Of a stretch of 64,000 nucleotides of DNA, positions 1 to 55,700 are shown one piece after another; positions within the stretch are counted from its first letter, which is position 1, and each line of letters opens with the position of its first letter. The position numbers and the translations under genes were made by a program. Where the stretch lies: the IMG/VR virus record IMGVR_UViG_3300005841_000939; one strand, given 5' to 3'. The stretch is from a virus (lineage: Duplodnaviria > Caudoviricetes). The notes under the pieces are model-generated. The model had not been told where the DNA came from and did no database searches. It saw nothing but the letters and a program-made list of their open reading frames with translations.

Positions 1-800
1 ACTTCGGTGCTCTTGGCAAGACGCATGCCGCGAGCAGTCATTTTGGTGATGAAAGCCTGCGCGGCTGATTCAAACCCCGGGACAGGAGAAGTGAGGTCAG
101 TGAGAAGAACAATCTTCTTCACGTAGTCGTCGTTGCCGAATGCATCAGCGAGGTCGATGACCGTATTCGCCACGCAGTGAGACAGTGCCTGACCAGCGAT
201 GAACAGATCATCGCAATCATTTTGCAGGGTGGTGACGAGGGGAACGTTCAGACCAGTCGAAGGATCCTCAGGATCGGGCACTTCAGCCTTGATGGCCGAA
301 TAGTGTTCGGTGAACATGTTGCTGCCTTTGGTGACCTTGTCCACCACATTACCAGCGACATCTTCCCAATCCGTAAGAGATTGGAGAACCGAAGTTTCCA
401 CACAAGCACCAGGGGTGCCGATGCGACAGTGAGGCGGCCAGATGCAGAGAGGATAGCGACCACCAGCTTTCAAGGCACGAGTGTATGCCAGAGCCTTCTT
501 GAACGTTGATGGAACAGAAACATTCCATATACCATTCACCACGTCCTCATCGGGGATGATCGTGAAAGGAACAGGATGGTTGCCGTTGCGATCCTTCCAG
601 AAGATCGGATGGGCGATGTCGAAATGATGATGCGAATCCAAGGTGACGTGAATATCAGCCAGACGATCACCGACACGTTTCACGAACGTTGCCGTACGGT
701 CGCAGTCATCGGGCGAACCTGCGACGAAAAGAGACCCTGCAGGATTGCAGAAATCCACTTGAGGATCGATCAACAGAAGATGTGGACGTGCGATAGCCAT
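1..800 (-). CDS. pncA: Nicotinamidase/pyrazinamidase (isochorismatase-family cysteine hydrolase); 3' end runs off the window
   Basis: Not in the ORF track. Manual translation from the ATG at 800 (AAGGA RBS upstream) gives MAIARPHLLLIDPQVDFC...TLDSHHHFDIAH...WPPHCRIGTPG...KGSNMFTEHYS...GQALSHCVANT, open to base 1. The catalytic Asp, Lys and Cys and the metal ligands match PncA. Confidence 0.85.
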   Translation of the reverse strand, partial: MAIARPHLLLIDPQVDFCNPAGSLFVAGSPDDCDRTATFVKRVGDRLADIHVTLDSHHHFDIAHPIFWKDRNGNHPVPFTIIPDEDVVNGIWNVSVPSTFKKALAYTRALKAGGRYPLCIWPPHCRIGTPGACVETSVLQSLTDWEDVAGNVVDKVTKGSNMFTEHYSAIKAEVPDPEDPSTGLNVPLVTTLQNDCDDLFIAGQALSHCVANTVIDLADAFGNDDYVKKIVLLTDLTSPVPGFESAAQAFITKMTARGMRLAKSTE

Positions 801-859
801 GTATGTTCCTTTGGAGGGTAGGAACTCACTCTAATGCATTACCACCTTAAGTCAATACG

Positions 860-1180
860 CTATTCCTTTTCCAATATTCCAATGAGGATTGCTCTATTAA
901 GTTCATCTTTTGTCCAATCAAGGCCAGTTTCTTTCTTCAAGGCAGCTAAAACCTCAACCGTCTGATTTCTTAGAACACCAAAAATTCTCTCTTGGAGGAT
1001 TTTATAAACCTCTTTTCCATTTACTCTTACAGATTTATATTCCTTTAAATCATCAGTATACAGATTATCAACAATGAGAAAATTCCAAGAAGTAGGTTTT
1101 ACTACTTTTTCAATTTTCTTTTTAACAGCTTTTTTCTTAGTAGGCATTTGTTCTTTCTTAAACCAAATCGCTTTGTTCAA
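860..1180 (-). CDS. Hypothetical protein
   Basis: 106-aa ORF in the co-directional gene string; no recognisable motif. Confidence 0.5.
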   Translation of the reverse strand: MNKAIWFKKEQMPTKKKAVKKKIEKVVKPTSWNFLIVDNLYTDDLKEYKSVRVNGKEVYKILQERIFGVLRNQTVEVLAALKKETGLDWTKDELNRAILIGILEKE

Positions 1181-1415
1181 TTTTTCTTTTGCGCAAACAG
1201 TTAGTGAAATTTTCTGGCTTTATGTTTCCATCAATTGCCTTCTCTACTTTTAAACGACAATCACCCAAATGCTTTTTTAATTCTTCAACTTTACTTTCAT
1301 CCATAGCCAAATTGAGATTCATTTTAAACACTTCAATATTTTCCATGAGAAATGGACGCCAAGCGCAACCATTACCATCAATTATTACATTTGCAGGATC
1401 TATTTTCCAAGTCAT
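1158..1415 (-). CDS. Hypothetical protein
   Basis: 85-aa ORF with an ATGA overlap to the upstream NUDIX stop. Confidence 0.55.
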   Translation of the reverse strand: MTWKIDPANVIIDGNGCAWRPFLMENIEVFKMNLNLAMDESKVEELKKHLGDCRLKVEKAIDGNIKPENFTNCLRKRKIEQSDLV

Positions 1416-1831
1416 TTTATATATTTCTGTTTTACAAAGTGTGATTGAGTCTCATGTATTCTATCAACTGCATCTTTAGGATCTATCATTTCCCATTTAT
1501 CAATTTCAAAATATCCTTTTTCAGTCTTTGTTGAACAAAGCAATTTTTCAACTTCTATAACAAATTTTACTTTAATCCAAAAAGCAATTAACTTTTTCTT
1601 TTTATGCCCGTAAGCTTTTTCTCCAAGCAATTCAAGCTCATCATGCGCCCAATTTAATTCTAAACCAGTTTCTTCTCGGGTTTCTCTTATTGCAGTTTCA
1701 ACATCAGTTTCACCTTCATTCTTTTTACCCTTTGGAATAGACCAACCAATACTATCTTTAATTCCATGCGGCCTACAAATCAATATTTTACCGGTTGCAT
1801 CTTCAATAATTATTCCACATGTTTTTATCAT
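1412..1831 (-). CDS. NUDIX hydrolase
   Basis: Nudix box GKKNEGETDVETAIRETREETGL (GX5EX7REUXEEXGU). Confidence 0.88.
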   Translation of the reverse strand: MIKTCGIIIEDATGKILICRPHGIKDSIGWSIPKGKKNEGETDVETAIRETREETGLELNWAHDELELLGEKAYGHKKKKLIAFWIKVKFVIEVEKLLCSTKTEKGYFEIDKWEMIDPKDAVDRIHETQSHFVKQKYIK

Positions 1832-1833
1832 AA

Positions 1834-2259
1834 TTACTTCACCGGTACGTGTTCCAATACTTCAAAATAACTAGCAAGATCATTCCATACATTTGCATAT
1901 TGCAAATTATTATACTTTTCTAAATAATAAACTTTTTTGATGTTATTTTGAAGAAGCAATCCCAAACATCTATGACATGGTTGTAATGTCACATAAATAC
2001 TGCAACCATTTGTATTAAACGGGCAAAAACTTATTGCATTTTCTTCTGCGTGCCGTACGTACTCATATTTAAGTGGTCGTTGCCATTTTTCAGCAGTTTC
2101 AATAATTCCTTTTGGAAAACCATTATATCCAGTTGAAAATTGATTATTATCAGGATGAACTATACATGCACCAACATGTGTTGATGGATCTTTACTCAGT
2201 CCTGATGCTGCTAATGCATATTTAAAATATGTATCATGTAGGAGTTGTTGTGTTGGCAT
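1834..2259 (-). CDS. dCMP deaminase
   Basis: SKDPSTHVGACIV, GYNGFP, HAEENAI and PCHRC zinc-deaminase motifs. Confidence 0.9.
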   Translation of the reverse strand: MPTQQLLHDTYFKYALAASGLSKDPSTHVGACIVHPDNNQFSTGYNGFPKGIIETAEKWQRPLKYEYVRHAEENAISFCPFNTNGCSIYVTLQPCHRCLGLLLQNNIKKVYYLEKYNNLQYANVWNDLASYFEVLEHVPVK

Positions 2260-2491
2260 TTTTGTTCTTTGATTCTACCCAATCTATACATTTTTGCAAA
2301 GTCCAGTTACTAGAAATATCCACACATTCGTAAACTACTTCTTTTTCATCGGGATCAATTATTTGAGAAAACCATGCGCCAGATTTCCATTGTCTAGGTT
2401 TAACAATAGCATAAACCTTTTTCTTTGGTGCTGGTGGAACTTCTTCTTGTTTTGGTGTCTCTTCGGGAACTGGAGGTACTTCGTCAGTCAT
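2234..2491 (-). CDS. Hypothetical protein
   Basis: 85-aa ORF with AGGAG upstream, coupled to its neighbours. Confidence 0.55.
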   Translation of the reverse strand: MTDEVPPVPEETPKQEEVPPAPKKKVYAIVKPRQWKSGAWFSQIIDPDEKEVVYECVDISSNWTLQKCIDWVESKNKNANTTTPT

Positions 2492-2688
2492 GAATGTCTT
2501 TCTCCTTCTTGAAAAATTAACATAGATGGTACCTCAATTATTTGATAGGTATCCATATATTGACAATGTGAACTATTTTTAAAAAACTCAAATGCCCAAC
2601 CTGGTGTTTCAAAATCACCACATAGATCATTAAACCCACCCTTTGAATCAGGTGAATTCCAAGCAAATAAATAATATCTTGTTTTCAC
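2488..2688 (-). CDS. Hypothetical protein
   Basis: 66-aa ORF with an ATGA overlap to the downstream gene. Confidence 0.5.
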   Translation of the reverse strand: MKTRYYLFAWNSPDSKGGFNDLCGDFETPGWAFEFFKNSSHCQYMDTYQIIEVPSMLIFQEGERHS

Positions 2689-2712
2689 ACTGCATATTAT
2701 AGTGAAAAATAA

Positions 2713-3387
2713 TTAAATAGCACCCAAATAATTAAGGTAATCTTCATCCTGACGAATTTCATCAAGAACATTAGCAGGAGTCATCGTTGCAGCGACATTC
2801 CATTTTTCGTTTTTAATTGCTACACGAAGCATGGTTGATGAAATATGCGGAATATCAGCATGAATAATTCGATGACGTTCTTCATCATAAAATGGACGCG
2901 ATTTCAATACATCAACAGATAATTTTTCACGATTGAGCACAACCAAATTTGTTGATGAAATAAGATTTTGCCAATTGTGCCACTTATCAAGATTGGCAAA
3001 ATTATCTCCACCAATAATAAGGGTTGGTCTATTAATTCCTTCATGCGAACGAAGTATGTTAACCAACCCTTCAGTTGTTCCGGCTAAGTTATTTAATTCC
3101 CAGCTACGAACATCAAGACGCCATTTACATGTGTCAGGTGCATTTCTAAAAAGAAGCTGCAATAATTTTGTTCTTAATTCAAAAAATGGAAGCTCACCTT
3201 TAAACTTATGTAAAGCAGCAGGTAAAAAAGAAACTCGCTGAACATGGCCATCAAGAATTAAACTTTTAGCTATTTCCAAGTGCGCAAATGTTGGTGGATT
3301 AAAAGCTCCACCAAAAAAAGCTAAATTTGTAGTTGTCGGAATTTTATTCGTCAGATTCGTCTGAAGTTTTTCGTCTGATACGTGCAT
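2713..3387 (-). CDS. nadD: Nicotinate/nicotinamide mononucleotide adenylyltransferase (NadD family)
   Basis: FFGGAFNPPTFAH (HxGH-like), IIGGDNFANLDKWHNW and ISSTMLR motifs. Confidence 0.85.
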   Translation of the reverse strand: MHVSDEKLQTNLTNKIPTTTNLAFFGGAFNPPTFAHLEIAKSLILDGHVQRVSFLPAALHKFKGELPFFELRTKLLQLLFRNAPDTCKWRLDVRSWELNNLAGTTEGLVNILRSHEGINRPTLIIGGDNFANLDKWHNWQNLISSTNLVVLNREKLSVDVLKSRPFYDEERHRIIHADIPHISSTMLRVAIKNEKWNVAATMTPANVLDEIRQDEDYLNYLGAI

Positions 3388-3992: not shown

Positions 3993-4256
3993 TTATTTGG
4001 TTTCTACCAATTTATTATCAATGTCAATATACTTTCCATCTTTATTAACTTTTACCCAATGTGTCGTACCAGATCCTACAATGCAACGTTCTTCATATCC
4101 ATTTTCAGCATAAAACCTAGTTTCTTTTATATTATAATCATAAATCAACCATGAAATTAAACCTACAGTTGAACATATTAAAAAAATAACTATGAGTAGA
4201 GTTGAGTCTTTCATAAAATAACCTTTATTTGCTTGCGTAAATGTATGGACAACCAT
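3993..4256 (-). CDS. Small single-TM membrane protein (true start probably the internal ATG, MKDSTLL)
   Basis: One hydrophobic segment, LLIVIFLICSTVGLISWLIY. Confidence 0.5.
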   Translation of the reverse strand: MVVHTFTQANKGYFMKDSTLLIVIFLICSTVGLISWLIYDYNIKETRFYAENGYEERCIVGSGTTHWVKVNKDGKYIDIDNKLVETK

Positions 4257-5178
4257 ACAGTGATTTCAAATCATTTCCACCAGAATATGAAATTGATGAT
4301 TGCAGGTCTTCTCTCAATTCCTTGATAAGCTTTTCCATTGGTCCTTTATAATCAACGAAAATTTTCTTACCTTCAACGTTCTTATATTCACCTTTATTTG
4401 TATCTGACGCTGAACCAAAATATGCTTTTTTCATATGGCCATTTATTTCCAACATCTCTCCTGCGGATTCTTCATATCCTGCAAATAGATTGCCAGCCAT
4501 GACCATGTGAGCACCAAGAGCCAAAGCCTTTGCAATATCACCATGATGTTGAATTCCACCATCTGCAATAATTGGAACTGTTGCGGCTTTTACACATTCT
4601 TGAACAGTACTTACCATAGGACGATGGAAACCAGTCTTAAACTTTGTTGTACAGACCGAACCACCAGCAATGCCAACTTTGATTGCTTGTGCTCCCCATT
4701 CTTCTAAATCAAATACTGCTTTGTCTGTTGCGACATTGCCTGCAATCAAAAATGTATTGGGAAGTGCATTGCGAATATACTTGATCATTTTCTCACCTTT
4801 TGAACACCATGCATTGGCAATATCAAGGGTGATGAATTCTGGTAATAGATTCTGTGCAATCATATTATTTATTTGTTCATATGATTCGTAATTTACACCA
4901 ATAGAAATACTAGCGATATGACCTTTATCATGCATTTCATCAATAAATTGACATGGATCAACTTCAAATCTGTGCATGGTATAAAACCATTTATTTTCAC
5001 AGAAAAAATCACATGTTCTATTATTAATAACAGACTTCATATTTGCAGCATAGACCGGCATCGCAAATTTATATTTGCCCAACTCTACCTCAGTATTACA
5101 ATCTTTTCTTGATTCAACAATTGTCTTTTGTGGAATCAAGTGAATATCAGAATAGTGAAACTCTTGTGTAATTGTCAT
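4225..5178 (-). CDS. guaC: GMP reductase
   Basis: DIHLIPQK, ANMKSVI, LDIANAW, GNVAT, KVGIAGGSVCTT (catalytic Cys), IIADGGI and GSAS motifs; short GuaC type without CBS domains. Confidence 0.92.
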   Translation of the reverse strand: MTITQEFHYSDIHLIPQKTIVESRKDCNTEVELGKYKFAMPVYAANMKSVINNRTCDFFCENKWFYTMHRFEVDPCQFIDEMHDKGHIASISIGVNYESYEQINNMIAQNLLPEFITLDIANAWCSKGEKMIKYIRNALPNTFLIAGNVATDKAVFDLEEWGAQAIKVGIAGGSVCTTKFKTGFHRPMVSTVQECVKAATVPIIADGGIQHHGDIAKALALGAHMVMAGNLFAGYEESAGEMLEINGHMKKAYFGSASDTNKGEYKNVEGKKIFVDYKGPMEKLIKELREDLQSSISYSGGNDLKSLYGCPYIYASK

Positions 5179-5886: not shown

Positions 5887-6444
5887 TTAGCGAGTACGCA
5901 CCTTGCGTTCAAATATCACATCATGATTTTTATCTGTAACAATATGATTCGTATAAATGAATTTCTTGTGATGAATCGCAGGATCAAATTTTGGTGCGGT
6001 TTCGTTCTCAACACCCTTAAACAAAGTAACGTGTGGTTTATAAGTAGGATATTCTGATGGGGGATAATCACCAACAGTTGTCATCCAAGAATTTATTTTA
6101 TTGAACCATTCATGCATACCTGGAGATTCTAATTCAGTGACAATGCATCCTTTATTGAATAGACTAAACTTTGAAGTAAACGCTTCAATTTCAGGTAATG
6201 GTAAACCATCCAACCATTCAACAAATCTTTCTGGATTTTGACCTGAAAGCATTTTCACATAACGAATAGTTGTATGGAAATGATCAGGTTCTTCTTTTTC
6301 TCCACCTTGCATAATTGGTGCTAATGCATTTTGTAATGCAAGAGCTTCACTGATGTATGGTTCTTCAAGGTAAAGCATGTAGCAAAATGTGGGAACTTTA
6401 TCTTCCTCATTAAGTAATACAAACTCATTAAATGGAGGGATCAT
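5887..6444 (-). CDS. 2H phosphoesterase, T4 gp57B/Acb1-like
   Basis: Two HxT motifs (FHTTIRY and YKPHVTL) spaced as in T4 57B (IHSTICY...YTPHITL), plus an N-terminal YxxxY strand. Confidence 0.72.
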   Translation of the reverse strand: MIPPFNEFVLLNEEDKVPTFCYMLYLEEPYISEALALQNALAPIMQGGEKEEPDHFHTTIRYVKMLSGQNPERFVEWLDGLPLPEIEAFTSKFSLFNKGCIVTELESPGMHEWFNKINSWMTTVGDYPPSEYPTYKPHVTLFKGVENETAPKFDPAIHHKKFIYTNHIVTDKNHDVIFERKVRTR

Positions 6445-6447
6445 GAA

Positions 6448-7080
6448 TTATTTTATTTCGTTCTCAGGCTTTTGTTTAAGTTTCTTTTCGGAGCCTGCGT
6501 CTGTATCAATCTTATGTTCTTTTCTTGCCTTATCAAGATTGTCTTTAGCTGCGGTATCACGGTCTGCATGTGGAGTATATTTTGCAGCAGCCTTCAATTC
6601 TTTTTCAGTCTCTTTACCAAATTGTTCCATCCAATCAAAGAGTTGACGAGCACCCTCTTCATCAGTGGTTTCCATTTTTGGATCTTTTGCAGCATTGCCA
6701 AGCATACCGAAGAACCAATATGGAACGGTATCCTTGATCTTTGTCCATTCAGAATTAATTAAATCTCTATCTTGTTTGGTTTTAGCAACATCTAATTCAG
6801 CTTTAATTTTTGCCAAACTTTCAAAGTATGCTGGAGGCAATTGAACTTTTTTGCCAAGTGCTTCCATTTTGTCAAAGTCAATAATACGTTCAACCATTTC
6901 ACCTGGATTCATTGAACCAAGTAACGCACGAATTTCATTGCGATATTTTTCTAATGGATGGTCAGCTTTCTTAACATCTTTAGCCTTTTCACGGTCTTGG
7001 ACATCATCATGCATCTTGCTGAGTGTTGGAAGATCCGCTGTGTATCCAAACTTTTCTTGAATAAGTTGCTTAATTGACAT
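6448..7080 (-). CDS. Hypothetical charged protein, probably late/virion-associated
   Basis: TATAAATA box 18 nt upstream; N-terminus MSIKQLIQE carries an IxE motif. Confidence 0.6.
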   Translation of the reverse strand: MSIKQLIQEKFGYTADLPTLSKMHDDVQDREKAKDVKKADHPLEKYRNEIRALLGSMNPGEMVERIIDFDKMEALGKKVQLPPAYFESLAKIKAELDVAKTKQDRDLINSEWTKIKDTVPYWFFGMLGNAAKDPKMETTDEEGARQLFDWMEQFGKETEKELKAAAKYTPHADRDTAAKDNLDKARKEHKIDTDAGSEKKLKQKPENEIK

Positions 7081-7097
7081 TTTTTAACTCCATTTCT

Positions 7098-7105
7098 TAT
7101 TTATA
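7098..7105 (-). promoter_or_regulatory. T4-late-type promoter TATAAATA (context AAAATATATAAATA)
   Basis: Exact match upstream of the start at 7080. Confidence 0.65.
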
Positions 7106-7131
7106 TATTTTATAACTTATCCAGGATTTAT

Positions 7132-7169
7132 GAAAACAAAGAAGCCCTGATGCTTTCGCACCAGAGCTT
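7132..7169 (-). terminator. Rho-independent terminator
   Basis: Minus strand reads AAGCTCTGGTGC-GAAA-GCATCAGGGCTT followed by CTTTGTTTT, directly after the stop at 7189. Confidence 0.7.
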
Positions 7170-7188
7170 TATGATTTTCAGCGTTGAA

Positions 7189-8076
7189 TCAGCCCTTGGA
7201 CAGGACGATTTTCTTGCTGAAAGCCTTTGCCTTGACAGTACTTGCGATAGCAAGCCCGGCTCTTTCCAGATTGGCAGCCGAGAGACGGAAGCCGCCGATG
7301 GCGCGACGATCACCAGCAGCACTTTCCTCGATAGTGATGGAATTCGGATGATACGTGATCATTACCAGTTCATCACGCAGGGCAGCAGCATCGATGATCT
7401 TGATGGGAATTTCCAGCTTACCATCATTGCGCTTGGAGATTACCGATTCATTGTCCAGAGCAGACGAAGTGCTCTTGGTAGCCTTTGGAGCAGCAGCCGA
7501 AGTCGTTGGCGCAGCCAGAGCAGGAGTTGCTGCGATGGATGGCGAACCAACAGGAGCAGCCTGCTGGCCAAGGGACAGCGCGACCTGGGCGCGATTCTGG
7601 TATGCAGCAGGATCGGTATTGTCAGGGTGATAGAGCAGCGCGCGGGCAGGGCCAGTTGGAGTCTGGACCGTGATTTCCGTGGACGTATATCCCCGACCGA
7701 CGATCATGCCATCAGCGATAGCGCGACCATCCTTGCGCACTTCGGAATGTCCGACGAAGCCATGCCCGTCAGACTTGACCTTGTTGCTGATGTCCAGCAT
7801 GGTGAACATGCCGAACTGATTGATGAAGTGGTTCAGAGCATCCGTGATGCGCTGGACGAGAGATGGGGTTGCGAGAGCGTTCATTGACTGGTCCTTGGGT
7901 TGATTTGGATCGAAAGGGATATCGGATTCGTAGATGATGTGTTCTTCGTGTTGATGAGATCGATTTATCGTGTATGGGATCTTTTTTTCATGAAGATATA
8001 AGAGGACTTTTTGTCCTGCTATTAGAGCCTTTGCTCCACCATTTCTTAAATCGATTTTGAAGATTTGTTGTGTCAT
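7189..8076 (-). CDS. Hypothetical protein (possible second start at 7884, MNALATP, with an AAGGA RBS)
   Basis: 295-aa ORF; the part downstream of about 7900 is markedly GC-rich; contains an Ala/Pro linker. Confidence 0.6.
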   Translation of the reverse strand: MTQQIFKIDLRNGGAKALIAGQKVLLYLHEKKIPYTINRSHQHEEHIIYESDIPFDPNQPKDQSMNALATPSLVQRITDALNHFINQFGMFTMLDISNKVKSDGHGFVGHSEVRKDGRAIADGMIVGRGYTSTEITVQTPTGPARALLYHPDNTDPAAYQNRAQVALSLGQQAAPVGSPSIAATPALAAPTTSAAAPKATKSTSSALDNESVISKRNDGKLEIPIKIIDAAALRDELVMITYHPNSITIEESAAGDRRAIGGFRLSAANLERAGLAIASTVKAKAFSKKIVLSKG

Positions 8077-8495
8077 CCGCTTGATGACATAGTATAGTAG
8101 ATTCCATCAGGAGCTACAAGCGAAAAACTGGCGGATGTTATTGAGAAGACTTGTTCAGTGATGTATCCAAAATAAACTCTTTCACCAGCGCGCAAATCAT
8201 CAAGGGCTCCGAAATAGCTTCCGTATGCTCCAGGCGCACTCCAATAAAATTTGAAGTTTGCGGAAATTCGTTCGCTAGTAGTATTCCTAGCCTCCATACT
8301 AATTACTGAATCGTAAGCATCACCATCCTGTTTGAACAGAGTTTGATGCAGCGTGAATGTTGCGACAGGAATACCTGAATCGCTATCATATAGCAGGATG
8401 TCAACAGACTTCACCTCTTGCGTATATTCAGGATCCTCGTGATGCAAACACCCTGACAGAAACAGAATAGCAAGAAGAGTGATGCAGTACTTCAT
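8073..8495 (-). CDS. Putative lipoprotein
   Basis: Signal peptide with lipobox: MKYCITLLAILFLSG-C. Confidence 0.6.
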   Translation of the reverse strand: MKYCITLLAILFLSGCLHHEDPEYTQEVKSVDILLYDSDSGIPVATFTLHQTLFKQDGDAYDSVISMEARNTTSERISANFKFYWSAPGAYGSYFGALDDLRAGERVYFGYITEQVFSITSASFSLVAPDGIYYTMSSSG

Positions 8496-8541: not shown

Positions 8542-8691
8542 CTACTTCGTCTTGCGTTTTGCAATGTGCTTTGAAGTGGTATCTTGCGGACCATAATTAA
8601 TGTTCTTTTTGCGTTCTGCAGGCCAGTTATCAACTCGGCGCGCAGCTTCATCAAGAATTTTGAAAAGCCAATTTGAGGAATTATGGGTCAT
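8542..8691 (-). CDS. Small hypothetical protein (49 aa, MTHNSSNW...)
   Basis: The ATG at 8691 overlaps the stop of 8681..9004; this is more plausible than the track start at 8832. Confidence 0.4.
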   Translation of the reverse strand: MTHNSSNWLFKILDEAARRVDNWPAERKKNINYGPQDTTSKHIAKRKTK

Positions 8692-9004
8692 ATTTAATTC
8701 CTTTGATTTTAGAATGTCTGAAAGAGTTGGCAAATTCGTAGCACACCCGTTCAGTGTACTTGTCAAGACGTTCCTGACTAACTCTGGAAAGATGATAGTC
8801 ATCCTTGTTTCCAACGACGGTCCACCAACCATTTCCTTCAGGATTATTGGTAAAACCTACTTCCCTTCTTTCGCTATGATTAAATCCAGCATACTTATAT
8901 TCCATAGGCCAACCACCAATCTTCTCTATATCATCATAGAGAGTTGCAGTTGCGTATTGCCCATACTGAAGTGATAGGCCAGGAATCATTTTCCTTTCGC
9001 TCAT
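8681..9004 (-). CDS. Hypothetical protein
   Basis: 107-aa ORF starting 4 nt after the PARP stop. Confidence 0.55.
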   Translation of the reverse strand: MSERKMIPGLSLQYGQYATATLYDDIEKIGGWPMEYKYAGFNHSERREVGFTNNPEGNGWWTVVGNKDDYHLSRVSQERLDKYTERVCYEFANSFRHSKIKGIKYDP

Positions 9005-9007
9005 AAA

Positions 9008-10411
9008 TTAACGTTCAACCTCGATGATATACTTAATGCTGTACTGATCAACAGTATAGACGATGAATTCGTCAAACGCCAATGAACGATATGAACCACC
9101 ATGCCCAGGCTTACCCCACGTTGAATCAAAACCTCCACGACGGGCTTCCTCGCGTTCACCACCATCGCCATAAGGCTTGATCAACTGCTTACCGAGTTTT
9201 GCATCAAGCACGAACAGGAAGCAATTGGTGGTATTTCGCTGATTCGGAAATGACAGCACGCTGTAATTCAGGCTCTTGGTACTGTGCGAAGCAGCATAGA
9301 GGCCTTTACCGAATGCATAGCCAGTCATGGGAGCTTCGGGAGGAGCGATTTTCAAACCACTCTTCAAGATACCGACGATGTTTGAATTACGGCTTCCATG
9401 CCACAATTCAGCCGGAGTTCCAAGCTTACACGCCTCAAAACGAGCACGTTCCGAAGGAATTACGACCTTGAGGATGTTCTTGACCTTGGTATTTACGTAG
9501 TGCGAATTGCCCTTAGTGGCTTGAACTTTCTTATCAAGACGAATCCATTCAGGATCAGTCTTTTCAAGATAGGAAAGCTGCACACCAAGTTCCTGATATT
9601 TCACCGCAGCACCAGAGACATACGAAGAACCGCCGACTTCAAGCGCATCATCCATCATTTGGAGGAGATCGAACTTGGTATCAACGATTTCGAGGGTGCT
9701 GAGAAGATCCGAATCCAGGATCTTTCTGCCGAGCTTGGTTGGAATGTGCGAATAGAACGCACTGGTCAGGATCTTGATTTGATCATCATCCTTTTTCTTG
9801 ATGGCTTTTGTCAAGTCACCAAGCACATCGCGACCTTTGGCGATTTGTGCGAATGTGAGGATACCAAGTGGAGTCTTCAAACCTTCACTGGTAATTTCAA
9901 TTGCAGAGTTGGATTGAATTGCGTTTGAGGAATCTGCAAACCACTGTTCGATAAGACGCTCCACAGTAGAATGGAGGACGACAGCCGGAGTCTTGGGATC
10001 CTTGGATTCGGTAATCTTCTTCTTTTTATCAGCCGGAACCTCAGCAGAATCAACACCCCAGCTTTTTTCACGCGCTTTGAGGGTGCCAACCGTGGGCTTG
10101 ACGAACTTGATTTCCTTGTACTTCTTTTCGCGAATCTTTTCCTTGCACTTGGATTCATATTCCGAGCGCATGTCTTGCTCATCGGAAGGTCCATAGTAAT
10201 CAAGGACACCATTATCGCCAACACGGCCATAATGGCACATGACCAGCCATTGACCATTTTTCAGCTTCAGGAGTTCAGCGGAGAAGTACTTGTTGTTATT
10301 GGCGATAGCATCCGTCTGATTACCGACGCGATGGGCGATCACCTCATATCCGGGAAAAGCAGCCTCCACACCTTCAAGGCCATCTTTGAACTTAACTGCT
10401 TTCCAAGCCAT
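9008..10411 (-). CDS. Poly(ADP-ribose) polymerase-like protein: WGR + helical regulatory + catalytic domains
   Basis: WGR-like HYGRVGDNG; regulatory FYSHIPTKLG...DLLQMMDD; catalytic LWHGSRNSNIVGILKSGLKIAPPEAPMTGYAFGKGLYAA...SLNY...FDEFIVY, matching PARP1 WHGS/GKGIYFA/YNEYIVY; GGAG RBS. Confidence 0.9.
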   Translation of the reverse strand: MAWKAVKFKDGLEGVEAAFPGYEVIAHRVGNQTDAIANNNKYFSAELLKLKNGQWLVMCHYGRVGDNGVLDYYGPSDEQDMRSEYESKCKEKIREKKYKEIKFVKPTVGTLKAREKSWGVDSAEVPADKKKKITESKDPKTPAVVLHSTVERLIEQWFADSSNAIQSNSAIEITSEGLKTPLGILTFAQIAKGRDVLGDLTKAIKKKDDDQIKILTSAFYSHIPTKLGRKILDSDLLSTLEIVDTKFDLLQMMDDALEVGGSSYVSGAAVKYQELGVQLSYLEKTDPEWIRLDKKVQATKGNSHYVNTKVKNILKVVIPSERARFEACKLGTPAELWHGSRNSNIVGILKSGLKIAPPEAPMTGYAFGKGLYAASHSTKSLNYSVLSFPNQRNTTNCFLFVLDAKLGKQLIKPYGDGGEREEARRGGFDSTWGKPGHGGSYRSLAFDEFIVYTVDQYSIKYIIEVER

Positions 10412-10456
10412 GATTTGCTCTCCGTGGCGTTGAATTTAATGATATAAGGTGATATG

Positions 10457-10738
10457 TCAAGCAAATAAATCTGTGATTGGCTCATCATTTGCAAGTTCAG
10501 CAAGGAAATCACAATGACATGATTGAGGAGAACACCAACATCCCAGGATCTTACCCTTTAATTCTGGAATTTTTGCCATCAATTCTTTATTTTGCAAAAG
10601 CCATTCGCGATGTTTTTTTATGACTTCTGTGCGATTGCCATCTTTACCAATCACAAAAGGATTTCCCCAAATAGAAGGTCGTCCACAATAAACATCATAT
10701 TTTTGATGCTTACAGTGGACGACCATCGGATGTCCCAT
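10457..10738 (-). CDS. DUF4326 family protein
   Basis: VVHCK...DVYCGRPSIWGNPF...LKGKILGCWCSPQSCHCDFL signature. Confidence 0.8.
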   Translation of the reverse strand: MGHPMVVHCKHQKYDVYCGRPSIWGNPFVIGKDGNRTEVIKKHREWLLQNKELMAKIPELKGKILGCWCSPQSCHCDFLAELANDEPITDLFA

Positions 10739-10741: not shown

Positions 10742-12415
10742 TTACTTCAAGTCAGATTTAAGATTAATAGCTGCAACCAATGATTCTCCATCAACAGCGC
10801 GATTATCTTCTTTGCAAATACATTGGGTTAGACGTATTGCATTTTTAATTTCACGGCCATTCATATCAACCTTACTGAGTACTGCAATTGACTTTTCATC
10901 AATTTCCAATTCAGCAGCTTTGAGTAAATTCACCCAAACTTTTTGACGTGCAACATCATCAAGTGCATCATATTTAATAGTCAATGTGATACGACTGTGG
11001 AAAGCTTGATCAAGATTCTTGGCACGATTAGTTGTCAAGAAAATGATTCCTTGATGATATTCAAGTAGACGCAAGAAAATACTGACAAGAGCATTTCTTT
11101 CAATGTCATTGGCTGTTCTCTCTTCAAGGAAAAGATCAGCTTCATCAATCAATAGCACAGCATTCCATGATGAAACAATGTCAAGAACTTGAGTCAAATT
11201 TTCTTCAAGTTCTTTTGCATTTGTACCAAGTTCACCTACAGTGATTGGATACAAAGGACGCTTGAGATAATCTGCGACTGTTTCAGCAGTCAATGTCTTA
11301 CCAACACCTGGTGTACCATGCAGAAGGAAGATACAACCGCCACTCTTTTCAGCAATAATATCCTTGAAAGAACTATTATAGTGAGTGATCAATGATTTGA
11401 TAACCTTTTTCTTTTCAGGATCAAGAACAATTTTATCAAAATTCAATGGATTAAATTGAAATTCTGAAACTTGTTCAATGTTGATTAAACCCCAATCTTT
11501 TAACTTGTAACTGAAAGCTTCAATCCAAGGAATAATCATCCAACGTGAATCTTCAGAGATGTTCTTAATAACAGTTGAATCATCACTTGCTTGTCCGCGA
11601 GAAGAAATTTTGTCAAACCCAACCTTATCAATTTGAACTTTTTTACCAGCATTTCTGAAACGATCACCAAACCAGCTTTTGAAAAGCATTTCACCTGAAT
11701 ATGAAACATAATGATTGCCAATGCAATACTTTTCAAGTTTCAACCCTCTTTCATTGAGGTTATCTTTTTCTTCTGGTGAGAGGAATTGTACTGGTAATTC
11801 GTTTGGAGACACATTTCCCTTGAAAAGTGGTATTTCAACTTCTCCATTGGTTTCTAGGAAAGTTTTTCCATTGGAACCAATATTCTTGTAACTAATAACA
11901 AATCTTGTTCCACCCCAACCTGCAGCAACATGAGTTGATGTAATAATTCCACCACACTTCAAACCACTTTGCAAGAATACAATTTCTTTATCCTCTTTAA
12001 ACAAATATGGCAACAAGAAAAAACTTATCTTGTTCATTGAAGTAATATCTTGAATCAACTTATCACGATATTTGCCACATTCAGCAAAGAATGATTTGCA
12101 ATCAGGATATGATGATGTTTGAACGTTTTGAAAATCGTCTACATCAGAGAAAATTTCATAAATTGGAATTTTATAAATTTCTCTTTTTTTATATAAGGTT
12201 TCAAAACTGCAAACTTCACGAAGACGTGAAATTAATTTTGCATTTGAAACTACTGCATATGGAACGCCTTCATGAGTTTCAAATATAAAAGATTCTGTTT
12301 TTGCAGTTTCTTTAGATTTTGAAACCTTCTTTACTGCTTTCTTCGCAGGTACAGGCTTAACAGGTGCAGTGTTGGCTACTAATTTTTTTAAAGATGGTTT
12401 TGGCATATGCGCCAA
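10742..12415 (-). CDS. AAA+ ATPase
   Basis: Walker A GTPGVGKT, Walker B LLIDEAD, sensor TTNR and the AFHSRI arginine finger. The LLHG.PG.GKTLTAE/FLRLLEY style resembles a family common in fungi and some bacteria and viruses. Confidence 0.88.
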   Translation of the reverse strand: MAHMPKPSLKKLVANTAPVKPVPAKKAVKKVSKSKETAKTESFIFETHEGVPYAVVSNAKLISRLREVCSFETLYKKREIYKIPIYEIFSDVDDFQNVQTSSYPDCKSFFAECGKYRDKLIQDITSMNKISFFLLPYLFKEDKEIVFLQSGLKCGGIITSTHVAAGWGGTRFVISYKNIGSNGKTFLETNGEVEIPLFKGNVSPNELPVQFLSPEEKDNLNERGLKLEKYCIGNHYVSYSGEMLFKSWFGDRFRNAGKKVQIDKVGFDKISSRGQASDDSTVIKNISEDSRWMIIPWIEAFSYKLKDWGLINIEQVSEFQFNPLNFDKIVLDPEKKKVIKSLITHYNSSFKDIIAEKSGGCIFLLHGTPGVGKTLTAETVADYLKRPLYPITVGELGTNAKELEENLTQVLDIVSSWNAVLLIDEADLFLEERTANDIERNALVSIFLRLLEYHQGIIFLTTNRAKNLDQAFHSRITLTIKYDALDDVARQKVWVNLLKAAELEIDEKSIAVLSKVDMNGREIKNAIRLTQCICKEDNRAVDGESLVAAINLKSDLK

Positions 12416-44768: not shown

Positions 44769-45091
44769 TAAACGTGTTCACTAACAAAACCACCATATTT
44801 AGTCAATTCATGTTGAACAACTAATTTACCAAAAGATTCCCTAACCCTAACATTACCAGTTATGCATGTCGCTATTCCAGAGCCATTTCCGAATTTATAT
44901 TTCGGAAGTCTTTTCATCACATCGTTTAAATGTTCAACTTTTGCATCTTCCCAACGAGTAGAATTAAGAATGTCATTATCAACAGGAATTGAGGTTTCAT
45001 ACTTTGTGCCAATTTCAATTTGCACAATCACTTTCTTAAAAAGACCTAGTCTTTTTACATTAAATCTAAAATTTCCTGTCAAATATTCCAT
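44708..45091 (-). CDS. Hypothetical protein containing two copies of the TGxxR...Q.E...WxD domain
   Basis: TGNFRF...IVQIEI...WEDAKVEHL and TGNVRVR...LVVQHEL...WKDTTI. Confidence 0.6.
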   Translation of the reverse strand: MEYLTGNFRFNVKRLGLFKKVIVQIEIGTKYETSIPVDNDILNSTRWEDAKVEHLNDVMKRLPKYKFGNGSGIATCITGNVRVRESFGKLVVQHELTKYGGFVSEHVYWWKDTTISTISQIFLGTTL

Positions 45092-46314
45092 CAGCGAATA
45101 TCAATCCTAAATAACGATTTTTTACCATGACGAATAACAATGCTATTTTTCACAATATCGTTATCAGTCACAATGTATGTCATATCATTGATTTTTACAT
45201 CGTTGACAGAAATTGAATTTTCCTTGATCATTCTCTGACCTTCTGAATTTGATTGGGCAATTCCAATCTCTCTCAGTAACATTTTTAATTGTATACCAGT
45301 TTTAATGTCTTCAATTGAAATTACCTTACTTGGAATATTTTCTCCAGTCACATCTCCTGATTTTTTAAATCCTGATTTAATATCATACATTGTCCGACGG
45401 GCAGTAGGTTCACTGCGAACCATTGAGGTTACATCATATGCCAAAATTTCTTTAGCATGATTGATGTCAGTAGAAACCATTTCACTAATTTCTTTCAAAG
45501 GACGCATCGTTAAAAAACGTAGAAGTTTTTCAACATCTTTATCTGGCACATTGCGCCAGAATTGGAAGAAATCAAAATTAGAAGTCAGTTTTTCATCCAA
45601 CCAAATGTTTCCAGTTTCACTTTTTCCAAACTTCTTTCCATTTGATTGAGTAAGCAATGGAAATGTCAATCCGTATGTACGTTGAGAAAACTTTTTACGA
45701 ATCAAATCAATTCCCATAATGATATTACCCCATTGATCTTGACCACCTATTTGAATCGTACAACCATGCATAAAATTCAAATAATAAAAATCATATGCTT
45801 GCATCAACATATAATTGAATTCAAGTGCAGTCAAACCTGTACTCAGACGACTTTTAACTGAATCCATACTAAGCATATGAGCAACACTGAAATGCGGCCC
45901 AATAATTCGTAACATATCAACCCATGGAACTTTATTAAGCCATCCACTATTATTTAAGAAAAAATGATAATATGGATTTTCAACATCATAACAATCGCGC
46001 AATTGTCTTTCAATGAGTTGCGCATTCGTATCAACCTCCTCAACAGTAAGCATCTTTCTAGATTCTGATTTTCCAGAAGGATCACCAATTAAGGCAGTTG
46101 CTCCACCAATAAGAGAAATAGTCCTATGATTGCATTTTTGTAACCATTTCATACACATGATAGGAACAAGACTACCAACATGCAAACTGGATGCAGTAGG
46201 ATCAAATCCACAATATGCAGTAATTTGTTTATTAACTTCAAAATATTCTCGTAAATTATCATCAGTGGTCTGAAAAATCAAACCACGTTCAGCCATAATA
46301 TCATAAAAATTCAT
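45091..46314 (-). CDS. tyrS: Tyrosine--tRNA ligase
   Basis: YCGFDPTASSLHVGS (HIGH-like), GGATALIGDPSGK, QAYDF, QIGGQDQWGNI, KFGKS and a C-terminal S4-like domain. Confidence 0.95.
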   Translation of the reverse strand: MNFYDIMAERGLIFQTTDDNLREYFEVNKQITAYCGFDPTASSLHVGSLVPIMCMKWLQKCNHRTISLIGGATALIGDPSGKSESRKMLTVEEVDTNAQLIERQLRDCYDVENPYYHFFLNNSGWLNKVPWVDMLRIIGPHFSVAHMLSMDSVKSRLSTGLTALEFNYMLMQAYDFYYLNFMHGCTIQIGGQDQWGNIIMGIDLIRKKFSQRTYGLTFPLLTQSNGKKFGKSETGNIWLDEKLTSNFDFFQFWRNVPDKDVEKLLRFLTMRPLKEISEMVSTDINHAKEILAYDVTSMVRSEPTARRTMYDIKSGFKKSGDVTGENIPSKVISIEDIKTGIQLKMLLREIGIAQSNSEGQRMIKENSISVNDVKINDMTYIVTDNDIVKNSIVIRHGKKSLFRIDIR

Positions 46315-52550: not shown

Positions 52551-53906
52551 TTATTTATACTTTTTTTCTTTAAAATGTTCTATCAGACGATCAGGCGTAA
52601 TTTCATACTTATAATCTTGTAAAAAACGACCATGTTGAATGTCATGAGCCAATGATGCAAAAATCTTTGAAAAATCTTTGTATGGAACTGGAACTTTCAT
52701 ATCCGTGAACGCTTTAATTAAGCTATCACCTGAAACTCTCAATATCCATGTATGAGCATAGGTGTCATTCAAATGAAATAATGGCTTATCGAAAATATCA
52801 ATTATTTCTTTATTTGCTTGATGCACATGCAAGCACAAATCAACATACTCTGAAATTGATTCTTGAACTTTTCTAGCGGAACTATGTACTCGCTCCATGT
52901 TCTCTTTTGATTTGTCGTAAAAATAAATGTGCAAGCATTGGTGGCAATGCATTAACGCCTTCCATTCATTCTTATCAGTTATTTTTGTAAAATCTCCACC
53001 ATTGAAGAATAATGCTGGCAACCATACTTTTTCCATTGAAGGAAATTCAGAATCGTCATCATCCTTATTGATGATGATCGGCTTGAAATCATCACCAAAC
53101 AATTCTTTGTCAATTCCATGATCCTTCATGCAATTGACGAATGTGTTATAGTCGCCAGACACACATCCTTTATAAAATTCGGCTTCAAATCTTTCTTTAC
53201 TAATGTTATGCAGTAAAGGAGCATTCCTCTTCATTGCTTGTGAAGTTTTAGGATCAATCTTCAACTTATACCGAGCAACAAATTGCAACGCCCTCAAAAT
53301 TCTTAGAGGATCTTCTGCAAAACGATCATCTGCATTACCAACAGCTTTTAAAATCTTTTTCTTGCCATCGTTCTCTGCTGTTTTATTTGGAGCAATGATA
53401 CGTTGAGGCTGTGCAATTTCAATTGCAAATGCATTGATGGTAAAATCTCTACGCTGCAAATCTTTTTCAATTGGAATTGAAGGATCTACTGACACGACAT
53501 TTCTATCAGTGTCAAAACGAGGAATACTAATCTGACATTCTTTTGTCAAGAAATTATTAATCATCAAAATACCAAACGATTTACCAACCTCATCAATCTT
53601 TAAATTAAAAGTTGCAATCTCTTTTATTATTTCTGTAATTTTTTCATATGCCAATCCAGCCACACAAAAATCATAATCAATTTTCTTCGTTGAATTATAA
53701 TAGTAATATGGTTGATTTTTTGATAATCCTAGGATATAATCCCGAACCATACCACCAACAAAATACAGAGTGCCACCAGCAGCCTGAACAGCAGCACCCA
53801 ACAACAAGATTCGTTCATAATCTCCGATATTAGGAACGAATGACAAGTGAGGATGTCTGTTTGATTTAAGGGCGTCAAAAATCTGGAGATATGGTTGCTG
53901 GGTCAT
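52551..53906 (-). CDS. cca: tRNA nucleotidyltransferase (CCA-adding)/poly(A) polymerase family
   Basis: YFVGGMVRD, DYDF, DLQRRDFTINA and EDPLRILRA motifs. Confidence 0.88.
   Translation of the reverse strand: MTQQPYLQIFDALKSNRHPHLSFVPNIGDYERILLLGAAVQAAGGTLYFVGGMVRDYILGLSKNQPYYYYNSTKKIDYDFCVAGLAYEKITEIIKEIATFNLKIDEVGKSFGILMINNFLTKECQISIPRFDTDRNVVSVDPSIPIEKDLQRRDFTINAFAIEIAQPQRIIAPNKTAENDGKKKILKAVGNADDRFAEDPLRILRALQFVARYKLKIDPKTSQAMKRNAPLLHNISKERFEAEFYKGCVSGDYNTFVNCMKDHGIDKELFGDDFKPIIINKDDDDSEFPSMEKVWLPALFFNGGDFTKITDKNEWKALMHCHQCLHIYFYDKSKENMERVHSSARKVQESISEYVDLCLHVHQANKEIIDIFDKPLFHLNDTYAHTWILRVSGDSLIKAFTDMKVPVPYKDFSKIFASLAHDIQHGRFLQDYKYEITPDRLIEHFKEKKYK
52552..52559 (-). promoter_or_regulatory. 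T4-late-type promoter TATAAATA
   Basis: Overlaps the CCA-enzyme stop, 26 nt upstream of 52526. Confidence 0.55.
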
Positions 53907-53969: not shown

Positions 53970-55661
53970 TTAGGACTTCTTCTTGATGGCCTTCTTGACA
54001 CCAGCCTTCGCAGCATCAACCACTGGACTTGTTTCCAGGGTAATAGTGTCAATCAACTTCACGAAGTCACCACCATTGTATGTTCCATTGGCGAACAGGT
54101 CAATAACAGTGAAGCAATCATCCGAGAAACCACCGATGTACAATACATCAGTTCCAGTCTTCACTTGTTGTGAAGTGTTAGGAGTCACGTCAATTGAAAC
54201 GAAACGTGCCTTAGGATTGCGACTCTTGAACTTCAACCATTCCGCGTGAGCCGAAGTGCCGTAGTCATTTGACATGTCGCGCCATGATTCATTGTCAGAA
54301 ACCATGATGATCAAGTCACCCTTGGCATTATCACGGTTCAACTTGCGGATTGGCGCACTGCATGAGGTTCCACCTGATGGCAAATGGGCGATGACATTTG
54401 AATTTGATACAACTGAATCACGAGGATTCAAGCGGCATGGAACAACATCATCACTGAAACAGATTACCTCTGCATCTGGATTCTTGCGCAAAACAGCCGA
54501 AGCCACCAATGCAGCAACATCGCGACAAGACACCTTTGAAGAAGTATTGCCACGGTTTCCAGTCACAGGAGAACCCATTGAACCTGACACGTCAACGCAT
54601 ACATACACCTTACCTGCGAAGGTTGGAATATTCTCGGTTGAGATTTCCAATGCGTCTTGCAACGCATTAGTGATTTGCGAAGGAATTCCTTCCTCAACAT
54701 TCTTGTATGCTGCCAAGAGTTGGTAAGGGAATACCTTACTCTTCTCAATTGATGCGCGATCACGGAGCTTATCCGAAACAGTGCCAATCATCTTGGAATC
54801 GTTGAAAACTCCTTGACGCAAGAAAGTATTCAAGTTCATGCGAGTTGCATGCCAAGGAGCATTCTTCGCAATTGCAGTCCACTCGGGTGTTCCGAGATTC
54901 AATGCAGTCAGAAGACGGAATTCCACATCAGGAATTTCTGAAATGTTGGCCTTACCAGAAAGAACAGAAGTCTTGAACTTCTCGTACTTTTGCACAGTTT
55001 CAGGAAGTTCTGACAAAAGGACAGTGGTTGCACGCCCGTGCTTGTCATTAACCATATCACTCTTGCGAGTAACAACCTTCTTGCCGATGAGATATGCGAA
55101 CAATGCAGCTTGCACACTATCACGAGGAGCAGGGTGAGCCATCTTGATCACGTCAGCAATTGATGGATCATTACCAACTGAATCCTTGAAGAGGGAATCA
55201 TCACGACGGGTCTTGAACCATGCATTGATGAGCTTCTTCACACTGGTACCGAAAGACTTACGTCCAACCTTACCAGAACGGATGATTTGACAGAAGTTAC
55301 GCAACATCTTACCGTTGTCGATAACTTGAGGGAACACTACCTTCAAAACACTCACATCCTTAGATGCGAGAATTGCACATAGAAGTGCAGGAGTGTCCTT
55401 CATGAAAGAGTGCTTGCGTGCGTAGATTGCAGTACGACCGATGAAAGTCGCAGGAACCTTGTTGCAGAGCGAGATGATTTCTGCAAGTTGATCACCAGCA
55501 GAAGTATAGAAGGTATTTCCCAAAGTACCAACGATGGCCATTTGCGCCAGCTTTTCGCGGTCGCCGAGGTCATACGCAGCCCCGCCAGCGTGGTTTACCA
55601 CAGTGGCAACGGGAGACTTGGACTTAGGAGTTGAGGAACCGAAGAGATTCTTATTAGCCAT
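53970..55661 (-). CDS. Ro60/Rsr TROVE + vWA RNA-binding protein
   Basis: NHAGGAAY, LAQMA..GT..TFY, MKDTPA, NGKMLRNF, HP.P, RMNLNT, PYQLLAAY, VCVDVSGSM, GGT and SDNESW; AAGGA RBS before MANKNLF at 55661. Confidence 0.92.
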   Translation of the reverse strand: MANKNLFGSSTPKSKSPVATVVNHAGGAAYDLGDREKLAQMAIVGTLGNTFYTSAGDQLAEIISLCNKVPATFIGRTAIYARKHSFMKDTPALLCAILASKDVSVLKVVFPQVIDNGKMLRNFCQIIRSGKVGRKSFGTSVKKLINAWFKTRRDDSLFKDSVGNDPSIADVIKMAHPAPRDSVQAALFAYLIGKKVVTRKSDMVNDKHGRATTVLLSELPETVQKYEKFKTSVLSGKANISEIPDVEFRLLTALNLGTPEWTAIAKNAPWHATRMNLNTFLRQGVFNDSKMIGTVSDKLRDRASIEKSKVFPYQLLAAYKNVEEGIPSQITNALQDALEISTENIPTFAGKVYVCVDVSGSMGSPVTGNRGNTSSKVSCRDVAALVASAVLRKNPDAEVICFSDDVVPCRLNPRDSVVSNSNVIAHLPSGGTSCSAPIRKLNRDNAKGDLIIMVSDNESWRDMSNDYGTSAHAEWLKFKSRNPKARFVSIDVTPNTSQQVKTGTDVLYIGGFSDDCFTVIDLFANGTYNGGDFVKLIDTITLETSPVVDAAKAGVKKAIKKKS

Positions 55662-55700
55662 GATGCATTTTCCTTTCAGGAAACAATTGGTTGGCGAGTT

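Follow-up and report, generated by a model that had tools for sequence, protein, structure and literature searches.

The described systems closest to the gene considered here are the compact bacterial PARPs, represented by HaPARP from Herpetosiphon aurantiacus and CdPARP from Clostridioides difficile CD160, which combine WGR, PARP_reg and PARP domains in one chain, carry the catalytic H-Y-E triad and a Y/W-G-R motif, and act as DNA-dependent poly-ADP-ribosyltransferases in vitro (PMC5966428, PMC8120803). What bacterial PARPs act on and what they do is still listed as unknown (PMC8120803). The gene itself encodes a PARP of this architecture and lies on the minus strand at positions 9008..10411 of a 64,000-nucleotide stretch of viral DNA (the window), which belongs to one virus record of 262,529 bp, IMGVR_UViG_3300005841_000939, with a completeness of ~97% and a GC content of 35.9%; the source is an uncultured soil (rhizosphere) jumbo phage. 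The encoded protein resembles HaPARP and CdPARP in domain order, triad and motif, but it is just ~30% identical to them and falls on a different major branch of the tree, and whereas the bacteria that carry these enzymes have PARG, the phage genome is without it. The same three domains in the same order are also found in human PARP2, PARP3 and the C-terminal module of PARP1 (phmmer E ~1e-30), although identity to the human proteins is 22-26% and the phage PARP has neither zinc fingers nor the BRCT domain nor a basic N-terminal tail.

T4 Alt, ModA and ModB are likewise phage ADP-ribosyltransferases, using NAD+ on host macromolecules, but they belong to the R-S-E clade, are mono-ADP-ribosyltransferases or RNAylating enzymes and are without WGR and helical domains (PMC9503650, PMC8120803). 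No R-S-E signature of the T4 Alt/Mod type was found in the window PARP, whose only Pfam and PHROG matches are to the PARP family and whose motif is H-Y-E. Phage PARPs were recognised by sequence in 2014, in Aeh1 of Aeromonas and phi4:1 of Cellulophaga (PMC4245714), and in 2021 in jumbo phages such as XacN1 (BBA65562.1; PMC7824862), and by 2022 PART/PARP was counted among the most frequent viral ADP-ribosyltransferase families (PMC9503650). A PHROG family, phrog_23333, already exists for them, and annotated examples come from Xanthomonas phages XacN1 and Xoo-sp13, Stenotrophomonas phages, Klebsiella phages FBKp34 and 05F01, and Cellulophaga phages phi4:1 and phi17:2. Several of these are also jumbo phages, but their PARPs are only ~25% identical to the window PARP and form a separate, well-supported clade. 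A phage PARP is therefore not new in itself, contrary to what an earlier note on this DNA had implied; what this locus adds is a winged-helix/MraZ-like partner that appears to be co-transcribed with the enzyme, together with a neighbouring slot that holds DUF4326 here and NADAR in a relative. No experimental study of any phage PARP was found in the literature searched. The analysis that follows indicates that the gene probably encodes a catalytically competent ADP-ribosyltransferase of the PARP1-3/bacterial PARP class, vertically inherited in uncultured jumbo phages, which would be activated by DNA and made together with a DNA-binding partner, with DUF4326 as candidate processor.

A three-domain PARP with an intact catalytic triad

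The open reading frame (ORF) starts with ATG and yields a 467-aa product (P0001), located exactly as previously described, and its own ribosome-binding site, GGAG (10421..10424, minus strand; CACGGAGAGCAAATCATG), is present 8 nt 5' of the start codon. In a Pfam search all three PARP domains exceed their gathering cut-offs, that is, the WGR domain at aa 31-101 (10109..10321; PF05406, 35.8 bits, cut-off 22), the helical regulatory (HD or PARP_reg) domain at aa 146-255 (9647..9976; PF02877, 50.1 bits, cut-off 26.8) and the ADP-ribosyltransferase (ART) catalytic domain at aa 290-466 (9014..9544; PF00644, 97.3 bits, cut-off 26.7, E = 1.1e-27), each on the minus strand. The codons of the triad are in place, with H338 at 9398-9400, Y372 at 9296-9298 and E448 at 9068-9070. 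The motifs from which the architecture had been proposed are likewise all present: YGRVG (Y61-G62-R63) in the WGR domain, FYSHIP in the HD, WHGS (H338-G339-S340), GKGLY, which ends at Y372, and DEFIVY, which holds E448. Their counterparts in PARP1 are readily aligned, LWHGSR, GKGLY and FDEFIVY of the phage protein matching LWHGSR, GKGIY and YNEYIVY; YGR aligns onto the WGR motif of PARP1, and the PLGxL and FYxxIP motifs of the HD align in the same way. When the protein is compared with PDB sequences by phmmer, PARP1 WGR-CAT constructs (E ~2e-30) and PARP2 (~6e-29) are matched, with PARP3 and PARP4 scoring lower.

The residues on which catalysis would depend are conserved well beyond this genome. 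H338, Y372 and E448, as well as G339, S340, K379, S380 and Y383, are invariant across 26 clade sequences at 38-60% identity, and Y61-G62-R63 are nearly invariant in the same alignment. Since the triad and the residues of the NAD+ site are invariant in the clade, enzymatic function appears to have been conserved. As judged from its sequence, the protein is a genuine three-domain WGR-HD-ART enzyme with an intact H-Y-E triad.

Structure prediction agrees with this assignment. AlphaFold2, run on 26 homologs, gave a model with a mean pLDDT of 87.1 and a pTM of 0.85, in which disorder is restricted to aa 132-139 of a Lys-rich linker between WGR and HD (aa ~126-140), a feature that sets the protein apart from the human PARPs, and to a short loop at 438-441. 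The HD appears as a high-confidence helical bundle (helices 148-167, 187-205, 209-222 and 240-259). In Foldseek the full-length model is best matched by human PARP1 WGR-HD-ART bound to a DNA double-strand break (7s6h, 4opx, 4dqy), and also by PARP2/HPF1 on a bridged break (6x0l), with E-values of 1e-27 to 1e-29 and TM scores of 0.6-0.7 over ~500 columns, so that the predicted fold fits the DNA-bound forms of PARP1 and PARP2 at full length.

A distinct clade of jumbo-phage PARPs

In the large protein databases ~25 entries, 460-483 aa long and all metagenomic, match the phage PARP in architecture and are 38-60% identical to it. Beyond this clade identity falls to ~30%, the relatives being other prokaryotic or viral short PARPs and eukaryotic PARP2-like proteins. 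From IMG/VR come two further copies close to it and three that are more distant, their contigs measuring 119-424 kb, and a profile of the clade identified just two loci among 185,579 species genomes, which accounts for the small number of named bacterial references in the tree described below. The phage is without a near relative at the DNA level, megablast with a 5-kb region giving zero matches among GenBank phages, and the GenBank phage matches to the PARP are at the protein level only (~25% identity).

In a maximum-likelihood tree of 102 sequences (quick search, midpoint root, the eukaryotes being mostly PARP2-like sequences), the window PARP falls within a phage/metagenomic clade (26 + 2 rows) that is monophyletic with 100% SH-aLRT support. 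The PARPs of Xanthomonas phages XacN1 and Xoo-sp13, Stenotrophomonas phage CM1, Klebsiella phage 05F01 and Cellulophaga phage phi4:1 form a separate well-supported clade. Eukaryotic PARPs also stand apart, 17 named and 4 metagenomic sequences making up a clade with 100% SH-aLRT support on a stem of length 1.4, and nowhere in the tree of 102 sequences is the window PARP nested inside eukaryotic sequences. The PARP therefore belongs to a distinct jumbo-phage clade. The description of the protein as eukaryote-like is apt for its architecture but not for its descent, given that its clade lies outside the monophyletic eukaryotes and that YGR is the version of the WGR motif that has been reported most often from bacterial PARPs (PMC5966428).

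A winged-helix partner in the same predicted transcription unit

The PARP gene appears, from the arrangement of the DNA, to head a single transcription unit. A sigma-70-like promoter candidate, TTGACA-16 nt-TAAATT (10433..10460, minus strand; 10/12 consensus matches), lies in the 45-nt gap ahead of the gene, although it is weak on its own, as 37 promoter-like sites occur in the region and shuffled sequence already gives 26.5 +/- 5.4. Three further genes follow on the same strand. The first, orf107 (8681..9004), begins 3 nt after the PARP stop codon and has no homolog that could be found in related loci; the second, orf140 (8073..8495), has a lipoprotein-like N-terminus (…LSGC), overlaps the start of the next gene by 4 nt (ATGA) and has homologs at the equivalent position in two related loci (L010 and L011). 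The third encodes a 295-aa protein (7189..8076), here termed the partner, 0.9 kb downstream of the PARP, and is followed after 20 nt by an intrinsic-terminator-like hairpin with a 12-bp stem, 6 GC pairs and a T-rich tail (7142..7169, minus strand). The PARP gene has a GC content of 47.1%, with a GC content at third codon positions (GC3) of 0.50, against 35.3% in the rest of the window, and stands at the 92nd percentile among the 241 ORFs of the genome. It is thus richer in GC than its surroundings, as had been noted before, but the anomaly belongs to the whole unit from PARP to partner (GC3 0.50-0.54, against about 0.2-0.3 in flanking genes) and not to the PARP alone. Spacing and overlaps, the promoter-like site, the terminator-like hairpin and the common raised GC3 together suggest that PARP and partner are co-transcribed and made together.

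The partner has zero matches in Pfam or PHROG. In its AlphaFold2 model a disordered linker rich in P, A and T separates two confidently modelled domains, the first of which (aa ~70-165) is a predicted winged helix and the second (aa ~205-295) an MraZ/AbrB-like domain. The best VIA-align match of the first is the winged helix of SSV1 F-112 (Z 6.6, 68/70 residues aligned), behind which rank many matches of PadR, Fur and TFIIE type. The second matches MraZ, a tandem AbrB/SpoVT fold (1n0e; VIA-align Z 6.5; Foldseek probability 1.0, E 0.017); the Atlas neighbours of this part of the protein are MazE and SymE families, and one partner homolog (P0269) carries a precomputed PF04014 match. Foldseek returned nothing for the partner at E < 0.001. 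Because Foldseek probabilities, VIA-align, Atlas neighbours and the one Pfam match agree, with no single match being strong, the partner can be regarded as a predicted two-domain DNA-binding protein.

A partner homolog is the most consistent neighbour of the PARP, directly after it or within ~3 kb in all ten other clade loci, and it is likewise downstream in three distant IMG/VR loci whose PARPs are just 32% identical to the window PARP. A word-indexed search for relatives of the partner gave 5 proteins, a number that says little about the size of the family. A hidden Markov model of the winged-helix domain (FTxxDxS…LYxP) has a single match in the whole 262-kb genome, namely the product of 7189-8076, and outside the Xanthomonas/Klebsiella/Cellulophaga phage group this domain is encoded ≤4 kb downstream of the PARP in every one of 25 other loci, which are not all independent but whose surrounding genes differ completely. 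Matches stand next to PARPs in L022, L024-L026 and L029-L035. On a 737-kb cellular contig the match is the gene that adjoins the PARP (E = 2e-20), on phage-like contigs of 138 kb and 503 kb it lies 1.4 kb and 2.3 kb downstream, respectively, and in a Chloroflexota metagenome-assembled genome the PARP is followed by two copies in tandem. Similarly, in each of the seven Chloroflexota genomes of ~6 Mb that have a PARP (401 searched), a winged-helix gene is found immediately downstream of a 439-aa PARP; these matches reach 16-23 bits and have in common the motif mFTxxDIxxA…H..VR…Y. The Chloroflexota partners are without the MraZ/AbrB-like C-terminal domain of the phage protein. No winged-helix partner was detected near five GenBank phage PARP loci, for three of which the flank was 1.5 kb.

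In the literature searched no description of the partner was found, nor do the reviews, in which bacterial PARPs have no known target or function, mention one. We infer that the winged-helix protein is the DNA-targeting subunit, a regulator or the main acceptor of the PARP. A broader proposal, held with less than even confidence, is that enzyme and partner constitute an ancient two-gene ADP-ribosylation module, in which the winged-helix protein would be a DNA-bound acceptor or a targeting or regulatory subunit, the MraZ/AbrB-like domain would have been gained in this jumbo-phage lineage, interchangeable genes for ADP-ribose processing (DUF4326 here, NADAR in a relative) would lie alongside, and a reversible, DNA-end-triggered mark would be placed on DNA-protein complexes of phage or host. 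The role of the partner in such a module would be loosely comparable to that of histones or HPF1 for PARP1/2.

One member of this set has a clearly cellular context. On L024 (737,476 bp), a WGR-HD-PARP (6001-7341) with its adjacent winged-helix partner is accompanied by genes for a TrmB-family regulator, an ammonium transporter, P-II, glutamine synthetase, PIN and rubrerythrin. This PARP would be notable if the organism were archaeal, as PARPs have been reported to be absent from archaea (PMC4245714).

Candidate processing of the modification and NAD+ metabolism

Directly upstream of the PARP, and separated from it by 45 nt, is a gene for a 93-aa DUF4326 protein (10457..10738, minus strand; PF14216, E = 1.7e-28), the single copy in the genome. 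DUF4326 has been placed in the rhodanese-phosphatase superfamily, occurs in viral fusions with Macro, NADAR and SLOG domains and is predicted to process phosphates linked to ribose in ADP-ribose derivatives (Aravind group; PMC9503650, PMC7824862). The preceding gene encodes a 557-aa DUF7025 + AAA ATPase (10742..12415, minus strand) and ends 3 nt ahead of the DUF4326 start. In L011 the orthologous ATPase (43% identical) also occupies this position, and the gene right after it, in the DUF4326 slot, encodes NADAR (PF08719, E = 1.9e-26); NADAR is in addition found ≤8 kb from the PARP in L019-L021. The slot swap and the predicted functions are suggestive of a writer-plus-processor arrangement. A general linkage of DUF4326 with PARP was considered and rejected (0/15 related loci), the swap in L011 being its single support. 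The ATPase was also considered as a partner of the PARP; an AAA ATPase lies near the Xanthomonas-phage PARPs as well as in L011, but it is absent from most loci, which points to synteny and not to functional coupling.

Known erasers of ADP-ribosylation were sought throughout the 262.5-kb record, and PARG of both types, Macro, ARH and NADAR (PF05028, PF10021, PF01661, PF03747 and PF08719) are all absent; control genomes were matched for four of the five families, PF05028 matching none, so that the negative for this family is weak. In their place the record has only DUF4326, with its predicted role, and a Nudix hydrolase; of the phage's own proteins DUF4326 is the one candidate for removal or processing of the modification. 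A different megaphage has, by its gene content, a fuller set of writer and eraser genes: on L026 (503-kb contig; 503-3355), a phage-type PARP with winged-helix partner is preceded, at a distance of 3-5 kb, by genes for ARH (5 kb away) and an NAD+-dependent DNA ligase.

The locus also contains genes with a likely bearing on NAD+. At 6-9 kb downstream of the PARP, all on the minus strand, are a NadD-like NMN/NaMN adenylyltransferase (2713-3387; TIGR00482, E = 1.2e-26, below cut-off; ~6 kb from the PARP), a dCMP/cytidine deaminase (1834-2259) and a Nudix hydrolase (1412-1831). NAPRTase and NAMPT are absent from the record, and any phage NAD+ pathway would thus be partial. A nicotinamidase at the window edge was considered and rejected, the isochorismatase match reaching 19 bits against a cut-off of 27 even with the full-length protein.

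Proposed mode of action

By analogy with the homologs that have been tested, the WGR domain would bind a DNA end or nick, binding would relieve autoinhibition by the HD, and the ART domain would then use NAD+ to ADP-ribosylate the PARP itself and DNA-associated acceptors. The winged-helix and MraZ/AbrB-like protein, apparently made from the same transcript, may act as targeting subunit, regulator or main acceptor, and the adjacent DUF4326 protein may remove or process the modification. Activation by DNA, proposed in the earlier note, is retained as the best reading in view of the conserved WGR and HD motifs and the behaviour of the bacterial homologs (PMC5966428, PMC8120803).

A number of observations weigh against parts of this scheme. 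Ahead of the strand that carries E448, aa 385-438 form a stretch 16 residues shorter than that of PARP1, and an H-Y-E triad can occur without polymer synthesis, PARP3 and PARP4 being restricted to mono-ADP-ribosylation (PMC9189837). The fold matches of the partner are middling (Z 6.5-6.6; Foldseek E 0.017), promoter and terminator have been recognised by consensus and pattern alone, and none of the RNA runs among those searched contained the 3.5-kb stretch. The role of DUF4326 is predicted only, its adjacency to the PARP is confined to this genome, with none of 15 related loci showing it, and a reversible poly(ADP-ribose) cycle fits poorly because the genome has no recognised eraser, unless DUF4326 or host enzymes act.

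The enzyme may make chains or add single units. The glutamate of the triad had been put forward as the residue for chain elongation, and it is indeed necessary, but it is insufficient, since PARP3 and PARP4 keep H-Y-E yet only mono-ADP-ribosylate (PMC9189837). The stretch through the donor loop (GLKIAPPEAPMTGYAFGKG; IAPPEAPxTGYxFGKG) is near-identical to that of PARP1, aligns with it ungapped and is of PARP1/2-type length; in PARP3 the loop may be shorter. This loop speaks for polymer, as does the analogy with HaPARP and CdPARP, whereas mono-ADP-ribosylation, including that of DNA terminal phosphates, is possible in view of the shorter acceptor-side stretch, the absence of PARG and the precedent of PARP3 and PARP4.

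The strongest alternative takes this second course, and we regard it as unlikely. According to it, the protein is a PARP3-like mono-ADP-ribosyltransferase that acts mainly on DNA, capping phosphorylated termini of phage or host with a single ADP-ribose; the caps could shield ends from nucleases or mark them, and DUF4326 would process the phosphate-linked adduct. There is biochemical precedent, in that PARP1-3 can transfer ADP-ribose in vitro to DNA terminal phosphates, which makes the ends resistant to phosphatase (PMC8385414), and the existence of H-Y-E mono-ADP-ribosyltransferases (PMC9189837), the 16-residue shortening on the acceptor side and a genome without a PAR-specific glycohydrolase all accord with it. 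Set against this are a donor loop with the length and, very nearly, the sequence of PARP1/2, and the finding that tested bacterial homologs of the same architecture make polymer (PMC5966428).

Considerably less probable is that the PARP is an NAD+-consuming effector which depletes host NAD+ for shut-off, superinfection exclusion or abortive infection, its modification products being incidental. It is established for PARP1 that activated PARPs consume NAD+ fast, and NAD+ is a central battleground between phage and host (PMC9503650). However, a simple NADase would need neither a regulated WGR-HD sensor nor a conserved DNA-binding partner, and lytic phages in general rely on host NAD+. The NadD-like enzyme 6 kb away, together with the Nudix hydrolase, fits NAD+ supply better than deliberate NAD+ exhaustion, as far as gene content can indicate, and the suggestion that the enzyme serves to drain NAD+ is thus unsupported. 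The preferred reading remains that of a DNA-activated ADP-ribosyltransferase that works with the winged-helix protein.

Phage origin of the locus

The gene order around the PARP is kept in related contigs. Upstream of the PARP in these contigs are a large low-complexity protein and the DUF7025-AAA ATPase, and downstream are homologs of the 295-aa partner and of a 210-aa ORF, an Acb1-like 2H phosphoesterase and GMP reductase. The 2H phosphoesterase of the window (185 aa, two HxT motifs; 5887-6444, minus strand) is 48% identical to the L011 protein; it scores 21.6 bits, under the Pfam cut-off for Acb1, the anti-CBASS nuclease, which the L011 homolog passes, and in L011, L012 and L018 a counterpart of the gene is found in synteny, ~2.5-5 kb downstream of the PARP. 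GMP reductase (4225-5178, minus strand; NF003966, 438 bits) is also found a few kb downstream of the PARP in the Xanthomonas jumbo phages XacN1 and Xoo-sp13. The nearest relative of the PARP, at 60% identity, lies in a phage-type locus on a 47% GC contig (L010) with the same orf140 and partner genes.

Synteny and monophyly together support vertical inheritance of the PARP lineage within a group of uncultured jumbo phages, and the presence of the gene in a 262.5-kb virus record of ~97% completeness, in a slot syntenic across related phages, upholds the earlier note's claim that it is phage-encoded. The same synteny excludes the contaminant scenario, in which the segment would come from a host or eukaryote. 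The wider notion that the GC-rich segment is foreign DNA, by recent capture from a eukaryote or bacterial host or through an assembly chimera, is highly improbable, for although it would account for the raised GC3 of the PARP-to-partner unit, it is countered by the shared slot in related phage contigs, by the L010 relative, by the separate eukaryotic clade on its long stem, and by two rhizosphere metagenome runs in which 0.99-1.00 of the words of a 3.5-kb stretch are present, the runs possibly being the source samples. The raised GC is best read as a sign that related phages have exchanged a cassette at a fixed position, with which the L010 relative is in keeping.

Other features of the genome

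Many ORFs of the window are of unknown function. Those that can be assigned include a helicase and three genes on the minus strand (45091-46314, 52551-53906 and 53970-55745), whose products are tyrosyl-tRNA synthetase (phrog_9270, E = 4e-116), the CCA-adding tRNA nucleotidyltransferase and an RNA-binding protein resembling Ro (phrog_850). Such translation and RNA-quality genes are typical of large phages.

The genome as a whole is a mosaic in GC content. A block of ~40 kb outside the window, at genome positions ~200,000-240,000, has 41-52% GC against 36% for the genome, single genes within it reaching 63% GC and a GC3 of 0.76, and smaller GC-rich islands occur at window positions 1-1000 and 54,000-56,000. 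An identical 295-aa partner protein (P0268) is recorded on four contigs, the longest of 379,560 bp, and the phage genome may therefore exceed the 262.5-kb record that is rated 97% complete. Just outside the window start, an overlapping pair of genes encodes a PP2C phosphatase and a Ser/Thr protein-kinase-like protein (L016 9773-12258, equivalent to genome 172,772-175,257), and a VWA-domain protein is encoded at L016 3493-4236; in XacN1 a VWA protein directly follows the PARP.

Implications for prokaryotic and viral PARPs

The locus offers a compact, testable system, consisting of a 467-aa enzyme, a conserved predicted DNA-binding partner and a neighbouring candidate processor. Should the partner play no part as acceptor or cofactor, the gene would be one more catalogued phage PARP, well documented but unremarkable. 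If, on the other hand, the partner is an acceptor or cofactor, it would provide a first clue to the targets of prokaryotic and viral PARPs, and would bear on the origin of the eukaryotic DNA-damage PARP system.

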